This document shows positions 58,801 to 64,000 of a stretch of 64,000 bases of DNA, in pieces. Origin of the DNA: Rhizobium sp. Q54 (GTDB lineage: Bacteria; Pseudomonadota; Alphaproteobacteria; Rickettsiales; UBA1997); the NCBI GenBank assembly GCA_945871805.1, contig CAMBXE010000002.1:3632-67631 (forward strand). The letters run 5' to 3'. Position 1 is the first letter of the stretch, and every line of letters begins with the position of its first letter. The position numbers were made by a program.

Positions 58801-61800
58801 TTCTTGGAAGCGAATGGTGCGCGTGGTTTCTTCCTGCACGAATTTTTCGTAATCAGCGGCAGAAATTTTTTCGGCTTTGAAATCAGCGCGAAATTTACGT
58901 ACTTCTTTTGTTTGTGGGAAAGAGCCGATTGTCGTAGTTGGCAGTAAGGGCAAATCAATGTACGCAGCCTGAATTTTTTTGCGCTCAGTGAAATTACTTT
59001 TGCGATTCATCAAGGATTCGTCGATTTCCGCGACGCGTTTTTTGACGAGTTCGTTGTGAATTCTGCGCGAAATTTTGCGTGCTTTGAGTATTGTTTTATT
59101 CGCAGAAATTTCTGCCTTAACTTTGAAATCTTCGCCATCTGCCGCTTGCGCAACGATTGCAAGTTCCGCAAGTTTTTGCGTCGCAAATGCCAACCAAGAC
59201 CTCAATTCTGAATCGAGCTGGGTTTCACTGTCGAGATCAACCGGAGTGTGAATCAACGAGCAGGAAGGCCCTACAATTAAGCGTCCACGACCAAGTTTAT
59301 CTGATGCTTTTTTCACCAACTCAGCTGATTTTTCCAAATTATTGATCCAGATATTACGACCGTCGATTACGCCGAGAGACAAGGTTTGGCCTGACTTAAC
59401 CAGATTAAGAACTTCTTCAAATTGTGAAGGAGCGCGAACCAAATCAACGTGAACTGATTCGGTGCCAAGATCAAAAGCAAGGGCCGCATTTTCGCTTAAA
59501 GAATCGAAGTAAGTTGCGAGGTGAAGTTTGATTTCACCCGCTTGTTGCTTGAGTTGCGGGTAGGCTTTCAAGTAAGCTTGAATTGCTTCAGCAGACAAAT
59601 CTGTAACCAAAAATGGCTCGTCGATTTGTACATCTTTCACGCCGATTTCATTCAATTTTTTGAAAAGTTGCGAGTAAGCAGCGAGAAGATTTTCGAGCAA
59701 ATCTAACTTATTTGAACCGTCAATCGACTTGCCAAGAAGCAAGAAACTGACTGGCCCGATGATCACCGGACGAGTTTCAATTCCTAATTTTTTTGCTTCC
59801 AAAAATTCGTCAAAAATTTTGCTCGAAGAAATTTTGAACTGCTGATTTTTTTTGAATTCAGCAACGATGTAATGGTAGTTGGTGTCGAACCATTTGGTCA
59901 TTTCCATTGCCGTTACTTCATCCGCACCGCGCGCCATTGCGAAGTAAAGATCGAGTCCGGAGAATTTAGTAAAGCGGTCGGGAGTTGCTCCAAACAAGGT
60001 CTGAGCATCAAGAATGTGGTCGTAAAAAGAGAAGTCGTTCGAGGGAATAAAATGAATTCCGTTGGCCCTTTGCTCCTCCCAATTTTTTCTTCTAATATCC
60101 GCCGCAGCTTCTTGCAGATCGGCGACGCAAGAATTTAGTTCTGTCGCGCTAAGCGCCGACTGGGTTTTTTTCCAATAGCTTTCGACGGCTTTTTTAAGTT
60201 CGCGATTAGCACCAATTCTCGGAAATCCGAGCGAAGCAGTTTTTAACATTTTTAGTTTGATTGAGATTGTGCAAGGCTTTGCAACAAGGAAAGGTGCGGG
60301 CTCGCAATTCGCAAAAAATATTTTTGGTTTACCTAAAGGCAAGGTAGTTCTACTTTTGCGCGAAGTATTTCCTTTAAAAATTTTTCAAAAAATGACAATT
60401 CACAAAACTGATTTGGTTGTTGTTGGCGCTGGTCCAACAGGTTTATTCGCAGTCTTTGAAGCAGGAATGCTAAAAATGAAATGCCACGTGATCGACTCGC
60501 TTGAAGTCATTGGTGGCCAGTGTTGCGCGCTTTATCCAGAGAAGCCGATTTACGATATTCCTGCTCATCCAAAAATTTTAGCAAGTGAGTTGATCGAGAT
60601 GCTTGAAGCGCAAGCGACGCCGTTTCATCCGACTTACCATTTGAATCAACGTGTTGAAAAATTTGTTAAAAATGCGGACGGAAGTTTTTTGGTTACGACT
60701 TCAAAAAATACCAAAATCGAATGTAAGGCTTTGATCATCGCGGCAGGCTGCGGCGCCTTTGGCCCCAACCGTCCGCCGCTTGAAGGTCTCGAAGAATTTG
60801 AAGGCACTTCAATTTTCTACGCCGTGCGCAGTAAAGCCGAATTTGCCGGAAAAAATATTGTGATTGCTGGTGGCGGCGATTCAGCTGTGGATTGGGCGAT
60901 TAGCCTTTCTGAAATCGCGAAAAAAGTTTACGTAATTCATCGCCGCGACAAATTTCGCTGCGCCCCAGAAAGCGCCGATAAAATGAAAAAATTATCCGAA
61001 GAAGGAAAAATCGAGTTAGTAATTCCTTACCAGCTTGATGGTCTTGAAGGCTCAGAAGGCAAGCTTTCAGCAGTGTTGGTAAAAGATTTCGACGGCAATG
61101 TAAAAAAACTCGAAGCTGATTATTTGTTGCCATTCTTCGGCCTAGCCATGGAACTCGGCCCAATCGCTGATTGGGGTCTAAGCCTTCACAAACACCATCT
61201 CGACGTTGATGTTTCAACAATGCAAACATCAGAGCCCGGAATCTACGCCATCGGCGACATCGCGACCTACAAAAATAAACTGAAGTTAATCCTCACGGGA
61301 TTTGCCGAAGCCGCAACAGCAGCGCATGATTTGCACAAAGTTGTTTACCCAAATCAGGCTTACAATTTTGAATATTCGACGAGCAAAGGGGTTTTGTAAT
61401 TCGGTCAGTCTCCTTTGCAAAAGGAGGTGGCGCACGAGCGCCGGAGGATTTCTCGAGGCAAGAGAAATCGCCATCCGACACTCTCGTGGATCCCATCTCT
61501 TTCTCAAAGAGAATTTTTGCCCGAGAATTCGATCAAGATTTGTCGGTCAAAAAATTAATAAAATTAAACCACTCAACTACGTCCAAAATTTCTCAAGCGC
61601 ATGTACCTAAAAAAAATCCTAATCGAAAATGTTGGCCCGATTGAGAAGCTTGATATTGAGCTCCCATTTCACAAAGAGGGGGGAGCAGATAAAAATCCAA
61701 AGCCGCTGATTTTAGTCGGGCAAAACGGGAGTGGAAAAAGCACGATTTTGTCGTTTGTGGTAAATGCATTTTTTGACATGAAGAGACTTTCTTACGATAT

Positions 61801-64000
61801 GCAGGATGAAATCGAGATGACCTCTACATTTCGCTTTCGAAGTTCTCTTCAAATTAAGAGTGGAGCCAAGTATTGTTGGTCGAAATTTGTTTTTGATGAT
61901 AATGTTTCTTCGGTTGAGTTTGGAACTAGCTTGTTAGAAGGCGAGCTCACTGAAGACCTCAAGAAAAAGAAAGAGGAGGCTGGTAAATGGGGTTCCAAAT
62001 TTTCATCCGGTGGCAAAAAGGATTTATACAAAAAGGGGGTATTTTTATATTTCCCTCCCAATCGTTCGGAGGATCCGAATTGGTTTTATGCTAATGGGCT
62101 GAATCTTAAACCTGAATTCAAAGATCCAGAGCAATTAGCTGATAAAACAGATAGAGAAATAATTCAAAAAAGCCCTCTAAAAAAAATTAAAAATTGGCTT
62201 TTAGACTTGCTGCTCGACGAGTATGGATTGAAAGATCAAAAAGCCGCTGCTTTGAGATCGTCCGTAGAATCATTAACGCAGGATCTTTTAGGAAAACCGA
62301 GTCCTGTAAGATTTGGTTTTTGTGATCGTCGAAATAGAAAAATTCGGGTTGTTGAAACCTCTAGCTATACCATGGTCTGTCCTGACCTTTTTGCGATGTC
62401 TTCCGGCGAGGTTTCTTTGTTTTGTATGTTTTGTGCAATCTTGCGCGATGCCGACTTTCGTTTAGCCGATCTCGTCGCAGATTTAAGTTTTAATAAAACT
62501 CAAGACATCGAAGGAATTGTTGTGATTGATGAAATCGACCTTCATTTGCATACAAATTTACAGGCAGAAGTTTTGCCAAAACTCATTTCACTGTTTCCTA
62601 AAATTCAATTCATCATCACAACGCATTCGCCGATTTTTTTATTGGGGATGGAGAATTTAAAAGATGAAAAAGGTGATAAAGTTTTTGGTGACGGAAATTT
62701 CGTGATTCGTGAGATTTCTGGCGGAAAAGAAAAAGAAATTAAGGCTGAAGATTTTTCGGAATATAAAGAGGTTTTCGAACTAATAAAAATCAGGAATTCT
62801 AATGAAAATATTTTGGTGCCCGAGGGGAAGCTGGATATCAAATACATCGAAAGAGCGGCAGAATTATTGAATAAAGCGGATATTTTGAAGCAGTTTGATT
62901 TTGGGCATGTTGAAGGTGCTGGACAACTAGATAATCTCTGGGGAGAGAAAGAGAAAAGCTTAAAATTGGTAAAGAAGAAAGTGGTGCTTCTCTATGATTG
63001 CGACACCGATAAAGCGGGTAAAAATGCAAATTATCAAAATAAAAAAGATGAAAGTTTTCCAGCGGAAAATCCTTGGATTTTTAAAAGAGTGATTCCGATG
63101 CAAGTTTCTAATTCTTTTAAAACCGGAATAGAAAATTTGTTTCCCGACAGTGTTATGGAGCGACTTAAAGAATTGGGGTATGTGGAATATGTTGAGCCCG
63201 CTTCTGAGAGGGTGAACGGAGTTCTGCGGCAAGGTGTTAGTAATTTTTATAGGATCGGCGGAGTTAGTAAAAGTGAACAGTACTCAAGTAAGAAGCAAAT
63301 CTGCGAACATCTTTGCTCCAAAGAAAATCAAAATGCCGCATCCGATTTTGCCAATTTCGTAGTCATTTTCGACGCGATTGAAAAAATTCTAAATCCAAAT
63401 TCCAAATCAGAATAATGACCTACAAACCCCCCTTCACAATCACCGATTCTGCGCTTAATGCGATTGTAGAGATTTCCGAAATGCTTGGTCGTTGGTCAGC
63501 TGAAACTAAGGGAAACTTAACCCCGCATCTGCGGCGCAATAATCTTATCCGCACGATTCATGCCTCGCTTGCGATTGAAAATAATAGTTTGAGTGAGAAG
63601 CAAGTCAGTGCGGTCATCGATGGAAAAAAAATTCTCGGCGCGCAGCGAGAAATTCACGAAGTAAAAAATGCTTTTGCGACTTACGAAAAAATGCAGAATT
63701 GGCAGCCATCAAGTTTAGAAGATTTGCTCGAAGCTCATGAAATTTTGATGAGTAGTTTAGTTGATGAGGCAGGAAAATTTCGTCGAGGTTTAGTTGGAGT
63801 TTATAGTGGTGATACCTTGGTACATATGGCTCCACCCGCTGATCGTGTGCCGCATTTGATGCAAGATTTACTTAACTGGCTTGGCAAAACTGACACTCAT
63901 CCGCTAGTCGCCAGCTGCGTTTTTCATTACGAGTTTGAGTTCATTCATCCTTTCTCCGACGGCAACGGGCGCATGGGCAGATTGTGGCAAACTTTAATCC

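Follow-up and report, generated by a model that had tools for sequence, protein, structure and literature searches.

The OLD-like gene and its Fic neighbour

The subject of this study is a pair of genes at the right-hand end of a 64,000-nucleotide stretch of DNA from Rhizobium sp. Q54 (assembly GCA_945871805.1, contig CAMBXE010000002.1), here called the window. The first, an OLD-family-like gene on the forward strand (61601..63415, ATG start), encodes a 604-aa protein with an ABC-type ATPase over residues 1 to ~395 and a Toprim-like nuclease domain over residues ~400 to 604. The second, also on the forward strand (63415..64000), is a class II Fic gene that runs off the window after 195 of its 253 codons. 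The explanation that we favour, and consider probable, is that the OLD-like gene encodes a stand-alone, class-1-like OLD-family defence nuclease, carried as cargo in a strain-variable slot beside a resident Fic gene.

An ABC ATPase head had been described in the initial annotation of the 604-aa protein, and all of the motifs quoted there were found. Walker A spans residues 40-48 (61718..61744, forward strand), and 109 homologs all share its residues G40, N42, G43, G45 and K46. An insertion between Walker A and Walker B (residues ~48-302; 61743..62506, forward strand) forms a first variable module, and is followed by a conserved anchor segment (residues ~303-396; 62507..62789, forward strand) that holds Walker B (residues 306-316; 62516-62548), Q321, the TTHSP H-loop (residues 340-344) and a linker. 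Within this segment D310, E311, H315, H317 and Q336 are invariant in the same homologs. Pfam matched AAA_21 (5.7e-17), AAA_15 (1.2e-12) and AAA_23 within residues 1-350, with SMC_N also among the matches of the N-terminal ATPase, and profile and structure matches delimit the ABC-type ATPase region to residues 1 to ~370. The closest relatives of this half are PtuA of Septu/retron I-A and then AriA of PARIS, with OLD proteins marginal: PADLOC models gave 1.5e-30 for PtuA and 2.3e-19 for AriA, a full-length profile search of the PDB gave 1e-28 for PtuA, 1e-7 for AriA and a marginal E of 0.019 for OLD (6p74), and PtuA structures were the top matches and dominated the list when the full-length model was searched with Foldseek. 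The full-length profile retrieved ATPases only from the PDB and no Toprim match, for which a C-terminal-only profile was needed. As judged from its motifs and profile matches, the N-terminal half is the ABC-type ATPase of an OLD-family protein, with Walker A, Walker B and H-loop in place.

The stop codon of the OLD-like gene (TAA, 63413-63415) shares base 63415 with the ATG of the Fic gene (63415-63417), and Pfam identified the second open reading frame (ORF) as Fic (E 6.9e-22; 4.7e-22 in a second search). We assign the protein to class II because it has both the active-site motif HPFSDGNGRMGR (63946-63981) and the N-terminal inhibitory-helix motif SLAIEN (63565-63582), in agreement with the patterns HxFx(D/E)GNGRxxR and (S/T)xxxE(G/N) of class II Fic and SoFic proteins; both motifs are kept in the window Fic and in 9 of the 9 orthologs examined. 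Both the one-base overlap (taATG, 63413-63417) and the class II assignment, as proposed in the initial annotation, were thereby confirmed. A contig that is 99% identical to the window and reaches past its end (L001, GCA_947503085.1) gives the Fic protein its full length of 253 aa, and in that contig the Fic stop codon and the start of the next gene, for a lolC/E-type permease, overlap (ATGTTTAG, 9799-9806). The sequence AGGAGG lies upstream of the lolC/E-type start in L001, and no obvious Shine-Dalgarno sequence was seen at the Fic or the OLD-like gene.

The C-terminal Toprim-like domain

The C-terminal domain (62790..63364, forward strand) forms the second variable module of the protein. It carries the acidic motifs LVPEGKLD (residues 405-412) and LLYDCDTD (residues 463-470), and with them the conserved acidic residues of a Toprim domain: E408 (62822-62824), D412, D466-C-D468 (62996-63004) and E511 in GIENL (63131-63133). 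Across the 109 homologs no change is seen at E408, G409 or D466, and next to none at D412, D468 and E511. Pfam returned zero matches at E <= 10 when the C-terminal 254 aa were searched alone. Two PADLOC models for RT-Toprim_I-C matched the domain (5.6e-5 and 2.4e-4), and a C-terminal-only profile matched the RT-Toprim protein of retron Ec67 (Eco2; 9lm3/9i2f) in the PDB across the full domain with E 0.005; the Toprim protein 1t6t was matched as well. Alignment with P2 Old by hhalign (E 1.5e-5, prob 80%) ran from Walker B through both Toprim motifs, pairing VEGxxD with VEGKTE and LLYDCD with LADCD. The Pfam family OLD-like_TOPRIM was matched weakly by 6 of 20 relatives, the window protein itself being without a match.

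Structure prediction pointed in the same direction. The AF2 model (pLDDT 86.7) has a beta-alpha-beta-alpha-beta-alpha-beta order, in which strand 1 is followed by the glutamate and strand 3 by DxD, and the best-probability Foldseek match of the C-terminal model was an OLD C-terminal region (6nk8, prob 0.90, TM ~0.4). The Foldseek matches of this domain were weak (E ~1e-2), with PurE and RecJ decoys interleaved among the OLD C-terminal regions, and were used as supporting evidence only. Since five independent weak lines, together with the AF2 and Foldseek results, agree on a Toprim domain, we regard the architecture of the 604-aa protein as that of the OLD family, and the conserved glutamate and DxD as evidence of moderate strength, drawn from weak but concordant matches. 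By sequence, the domain appears closest to the Toprim domains of retron Ec67/Eco2 and of OLD proteins. The initial annotation had likened the domain to both OLD nucleases and DUF4435/AriB; the OLD-type E...DxD pattern was upheld, but no Pfam match to DUF4435 was found in the C-terminal domain at E <= 10, nor was this family among the 25 families most matched by 20 relatives.

A strain-variable slot beside a resident Fic gene

Related contigs, which are labelled as Pelagibacterales or Proteobacteria metagenome-assembled genomes from freshwater, place the two genes in a conserved setting. In eight contexts the gene order is metE, FNR, slot, Fic, slot and lolC/E, and it is the content of the slots that differs. 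Upstream of Fic lie an OLD-like gene of 604 aa (window and L001), an OLD-like gene of 625 aa (L087), a gene for a 343-aa membrane protein (L170) and a gene for a 469-aa pentapeptide/transmembrane protein (L179); downstream of Fic lie an OLD-like gene of 649 aa (L003) and a gene for a 346-aa protein, a 58%-identical homolog of the 343-aa membrane protein of L170 (L172). The slot is empty in L174 and L176, the latter arrangement being found on 10 contigs. The locus is a small strain-variable slot between conserved FNR-like and lolC/E genes, with Fic as its fixed resident.

The borders of the slot are sharp. The left flank is an FNR-like housekeeping gene (60257..61399, forward strand) of the thioredoxin-reductase type, identified as Pyr_redox_2 by Pfam on the identical L001 gene; the L087, L170 and L179 copies of its protein are 95-98% identical and those of L003, L174 and L176 ~80%, and 86-98% identity of the flanking DNA persists until ~54 nt beyond the FNR stop. 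Between L001 and L170 the DNA is 98% identical up to position 7083 of L001 (window 61453), where similarity breaks, and it resumes, at 83%, exactly at the Fic ATG. The exchangeable unit therefore corresponds to approximately window 61454-63414, and ~20-54 nt at most separate cargo borders from the FNR stop and the Fic ATG. The unit includes a cargo-specific leader of the OLD-like gene (61454..61600, forward strand), which is shared (86%) only with L087, also an OLD-like carrier.

The 200-nt spacer between FNR and the OLD-like gene, described as hairpin-rich in the initial annotation, does fold somewhat better than shuffled sequences (z = -2.7). Its FNR-proximal part (61397-61500) contains several short GC-rich hairpins, which may terminate transcription of the FNR gene. 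A promoter and terminator scan of the spacer and the gene pair gave counts not above those of shuffles, and no convincing sigma-70 promoter was found within the leader 61454..61600.

Fic orthologs from the freshwater lineage are 67-82% identical and 251-256 aa long, and those at the same locus are 70-91% identical with or without cargo; two alleles that are 91% identical have an OLD-like neighbour in L087 and a membrane-protein neighbour in L170. Furthermore, the Fic ATG abuts or overlaps the stop codon of any gene that lies upstream, be it FNR, the 469-aa gene, X343 or the OLD-like gene, so that Fic would always be translated directly behind whichever gene is present. The TAATG overlap, which had been taken as a sign of an OLD-Fic pair, is therefore a generic property of Fic and of the locus.

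A constant Fic protein could nevertheless act as a regulator, effector or antitoxin-like AMPylase that works with interchangeable cargo, be it OLD-like, 343/346-aa or 469-aa. Each cargo type lies immediately beside Fic, two cargo families occur on both sides of it, and upstream cargo is always fused to it stop-to-ATG. Fic divergence (70-91%) also does not track that of the FNR flank (80-98%), which would fit a Fic gene that is itself part of the variable region, and the arrangement resembles defence families that have one conserved and one swappable component. We consider such a role very unlikely. At least two genome groups, one of them represented by 10 contigs, have Fic without cargo, and a third has it in a pst operon; Fic homologs that are 62-65% identical and carry a winged helix-turn-helix (wHTH) domain of their own are widespread in other phyla, and SoFic-type systems are known to consist of a single gene. 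The cargo families, moreover, share no similarity and are not known partners of Fic.

The pst operon placement is seen in L178 (1259-2026), where a 68%-identical Fic ortholog without a C-terminal domain (CTD) lies between two pst-type permease genes (pstC/pstA-like), and again on a 434-kb contig. The clade of CTD-less Fic genes is found repeatedly inside housekeeping operons, packed tightly against the neighbouring genes. As for the other cargo, the 343/346-aa family (L170 4973-6004; L172 6809-7849), found on either side of Fic, has two predicted C-terminal transmembrane helices, and the 469-aa protein (L179 3591-5000) has weak pentapeptide repeats and C-terminal transmembrane helices. Searches with Pfam and PADLOC models gave nothing convincing for either, and both families are candidates for as yet unknown defence or toxin genes. 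A relationship between these genes and the 344-aa and 469-aa genes near a distant homolog of the OLD-like protein (P0004) was rejected, as no similarity was found.

The OLD-like family and its neighbours

Homologs of the OLD-like protein number more than 1000 and come from many phyla, and those of ~600 aa align end to end. The full-length loci examined were 23 from reference genomes, ~9 from metagenomes and 1 from a viral contig, and an ORF with a Fic motif adjacent to the family member was found at none of them. All-vs-all BLAST of the neighbours at the 23 genome loci revealed no recurrent partner, the only recurrences being antisense shadow ORFs. Nameable neighbours of family members are often of immune type, and those of distant members include Cas1, SIR2_2, caspase, HSDR_N, Eco57I restriction-modification, HEPN, HipA and DUF3800 proteins. 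A few family members are on proviral contigs, and a tblastn search of a phage collection gave one partial match only.

One independent OLD-like/Fic adjacency was found outside the window-type locus. In L088, a contig of unrelated lineage, an OLD-like gene (34% identical to that of the window) is followed by a Fic_N-Fic gene of another subfamily, beside a restriction-modification gene. The syntenic locus of L224, a 79%-identical relative that has the same downstream 351-aa gene and ATP-sulfurylase, carries HipA_C and a 260-aa gene in place of Fic and a leucine-rich repeat (LRR) gene.

These results bear on the proposal of the initial annotation that the OLD-like and Fic genes form a dedicated, co-translated two-gene module, in which the ATPase-Toprim protein licenses Fic, or Fic AMPylates and restrains the nuclease as MNT does for HEPN. 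The one-base overlap, the adjacency in three related genomes and in two gene orders, the unrelated pair of L088 next to a restriction-modification gene, and a further Fic gene 2.5 kb from a family member, on the opposite strand (L110), all speak for such a module. An external activator of Fic is also plausible, because the protein is auto-inhibited by its SLAIEN motif and is without the C-terminal domain of SoFic (PMC12249575). However, co-conservation, the yardstick that the initial annotation had set for its own proposal, was not observed: the pair amounts to one syntenic locus in three related genomes, and to L088. There is no adjacent Fic at the ~32 other full-length loci; Fic is intact without cargo (L174, L176), with unrelated cargo (L170, L172, L179) and in the pst operon (L178); its 91%-identical alleles in L087 and L170 lie beside different genes; the stop/ATG abutment is generic; and the Fic gene of L088 is replaced by HipA in its syntenic relative. 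We therefore judge a dedicated module to be unlikely.

By analogy, two broader arrangements may be envisaged, which together we hold to be decidedly unlikely: the CTD-less, auto-inhibited Fic could be an AMPylating hub that acts over, or is unleashed by, adjacent toxic cargo, or OLD-like sensors could pair with interchangeable toxins that are post-translational modifiers, namely Fic in the window and in L088 and HipA in L224. AMPylation of HEPN toxins by MNT is the analogue for a Fic protein that controls its neighbours.

Near another homolog, P0004, which is 42% identical to the window protein, the contig (L084 1-5514 and 8106-9140) has the appearance of a defence or toxin-antitoxin island, with HEPN RiboL-PSP, HTH-HipA and NUDIX genes, a gene whose 469-aa product matches Apea-like HEPN weakly and, downstream of the OLD-like gene, one for a DUF3800 protein.

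A mosaic allele

The OLD-like alleles of the window and L087 differ far more than their surroundings do. Flanking proteins are 89-97% identical and Fic is 78% identical, and the OLD-like proteins are only 39% identical. At the DNA level, similarity of ~86% extends from recJ across the spacer and over the initial 142 nt of the OLD-like gene, and stops at 61742, so that the first variable module has no detectable similarity to the L087 allele. It resumes at 62507-62789 (82%), from Walker B to the linker, is lost again over the Toprim-like module, and returns 50 nt before the OLD-like stop. Protein identity per block of 30 residues follows the same pattern: it is 83-93% in the anchor segments, with 76-93% given for the one that holds Walker B, and drops to 13-33% in the other blocks. 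With the allele of L003, a more distant genome, the window allele shares 48% identity, more than the 39% it shares with that of L087, and the OLD-like gene tree therefore conflicts with the genome tree. The alignment indicates exchange or hyper-divergence of two modules, the ATPase insertion and the Toprim domain, around the kept Walker A and Walker B anchors. A pattern of this kind is characteristic of immune genes that experience diversifying pressure.

The OLD-like protein could also have a housekeeping role, as an ATPase-nuclease that acts in DNA repair or in chromosome or cell-cycle functions, with Fic as a housekeeping regulator. The locus does lie between housekeeping genes on the same strand, with no integrase or repeats, and a non-defence role in DNA repair, the chromosome or the cell cycle has been reported for one OLD-family member, the archaeal protein Cran1 (PMC12796447). 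An essential housekeeping role is, however, a poor fit, because the gene is present, absent or replaced among genomes with 86-98% identical flanks, because OLD-like identity is so low against that of the neighbouring proteins, because the distribution across phyla is patchy, and because distant members have immune-type neighbours. We give this explanation almost no credence.

Proposed role and significance

In our preferred explanation of a stand-alone defence nuclease, the OLD-like gene is a genuine but unremarkable representative of the OLD family, whose members are anti-phage nucleases driven by ATP. Its mode of action is proposed by analogy to P2 Old, PARIS and retron Eco2: a phage-derived cue would be sensed by the ATPase together with its variable insertion, upon which the ATPase would release the Toprim nuclease, predicted to be metal-dependent, onto tRNA, other RNA or DNA. 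Cleavage would stop translation or replication in the infected cell and result in abortive infection. The pairing of a PtuA/AriA-like ATPase with a Toprim domain most like that of the Eco2 tRNA nickase suggests, again by analogy, a class-1-like OLD that targets RNA.

Several observations weigh against this explanation. The Toprim assignment is composed of several weak matches (E 5e-5 to 1e-2, TM ~0.4) with no strong one among them. OLD-like genes are, in addition, the commonest cargo at the side of Fic, occupying 3 of the 6 filled slots in two orientations and with three very different alleles, a frequency that could indicate selection for pairing, and the unrelated lineage L088 also has a Fic gene directly downstream of its OLD-like gene.

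If the proposal of a stand-alone defence nuclease is correct, the gene adds one more uncharacterised single-gene immune nuclease of OLD type and defines a large subfamily of more than 1000 proteins in many phyla. Default PADLOC annotation would probably miss it, since no PADLOC model spans the full architecture and the halves match separately (PtuA and AriA at the N-terminus, RT-Toprim_I-C weakly at the C-terminus). The locus also offers a clean natural experiment in immune-gene turnover, with a one-gene slot swapped between fixed flanks and an allele in which the sensor insertion and the nuclease domain are swapped around conserved ATPase anchors. It further cautions that a stop/start overlap is not proof of a functional pair.

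Other features of the window

Two further Fic genes lie in the window, both only ~30% identical to the Fic next to the OLD-like gene. One (34685-35671, reverse strand) encodes a 328-aa protein in which Fic is fused to a C-terminal MerR-type HTH, and the other (54692-55606, forward strand; 304 aa) lies just upstream of recJ and is found in L001 as well. An ORF of 1871 aa (3214-8829, forward strand) contains a eukaryote-type ubiquitin C-terminal hydrolase (UCH, PF00443) at residues ~1091-1342; together with three Fic genes in 64 kb, this hints that the organism may be host-associated and may produce effector-like proteins. The GC content falls to 0.37-0.40 in 32000-38300, against ~0.43-0.45, over a stretch that contains the Fic-MerR gene and two genes of the beta-lactamase family and has a tRNA gene (38209-38297, reverse strand) at its end. 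This stretch may be a genomic island.

Comparison with known systems

The Fic protein of the window locus resembles SoFic, a stand-alone, single-gene class II Fic anti-phage AMPylase: it matches the PADLOC SoFic model (1.2e-42) and has the same active-site and N-terminal inhibitory-helix motifs. It differs in size, with 253 aa against ~360 aa, and in its placement within housekeeping operons, where it is joined stop-to-start to its neighbours. Of the 361 profile positions, 20-268 are matched, and as the protein ends, at residue 253, at profile position 268, the window-locus Fic is without the SoFic C-terminal domain, which has been reported to be critical for toxicity (PMC12249575). On the partial Fic ORF of the window the NCBIfam SoFic model scored 40.6, its cut-off being 550.

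Of the systems that contain an OLD-type or related ATPase, Gabija (class 2 OLD) was rejected, as no GajB UvrD/PcrA-like helicase is adjacent in the window or L001; Gabija models were also absent from the 25 best PADLOC matches of the window protein. PtuA of Septu/retron I-A is the closest structural and profile match of residues 1 to ~370, but PtuA is without a Toprim domain. This assignment was rejected, with NCBIfam PtuA scoring 84.8 bits against a cut-off of 500 and no adjacent PtuB HNH gene in the window or L001.

Retron Ec67/Eco2 (type I-C) provides the best sequence-level match of the window Toprim domain, over its whole length. Its Toprim domain is an RNA/tRNA nickase that nicks the acceptor stem of tRNA (PMC12916289). 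The N-terminal partner in the retron is a reverse transcriptase, whereas in the window protein it is an ABC ATPase, and an Rfam scan of the window returned one tRNA only and no retron non-coding RNA. A type I-C retron was rejected, as the Toprim part alone matches.

In PARIS, a proposed class 4 OLD system composed of AriA and the DUF4435 Toprim protein AriB, an AAA_21/AAA_15-type ATPase is likewise combined with a Toprim nuclease, single-gene fusions have been described (PMC9122126), and AriA models match the N-terminal half of the window protein. PARIS was rejected on the absence of a C-terminal DUF4435 (PF14491) match at E <= 10.

The class 1 OLD proteins, among them P2 Old, which cleaves tRNA in the anticodon arm (PMC12445682), Thermus scotoductus OLD, E. 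coli YbjD and Vibrio cholerae class 1 OLD, are ~530-600 aa long, as is the window protein. They have the same architecture, an N-terminal ABC ATPase with an insertion followed by a C-terminal Toprim domain with E...DxD. The similarity in sequence is marginal, and the window ATPase scores far better against PtuA and AriA; the helical part at the C-terminus of the window protein, with conserved K564, C568 and C572, is also without an identified counterpart in class 1. Class 1 OLDs are single genes without a fixed partner (PMC10568477), and the window family has no recurrent neighbour at the 23 genome loci; in the window and L001 no helicase or reverse transcriptase gene is adjacent, and no retron RNA was found in the window. 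As no conserved partner accompanies it, the stand-alone distribution of the OLD-like family matches the published picture of class 1 OLDs (PMC10568477).

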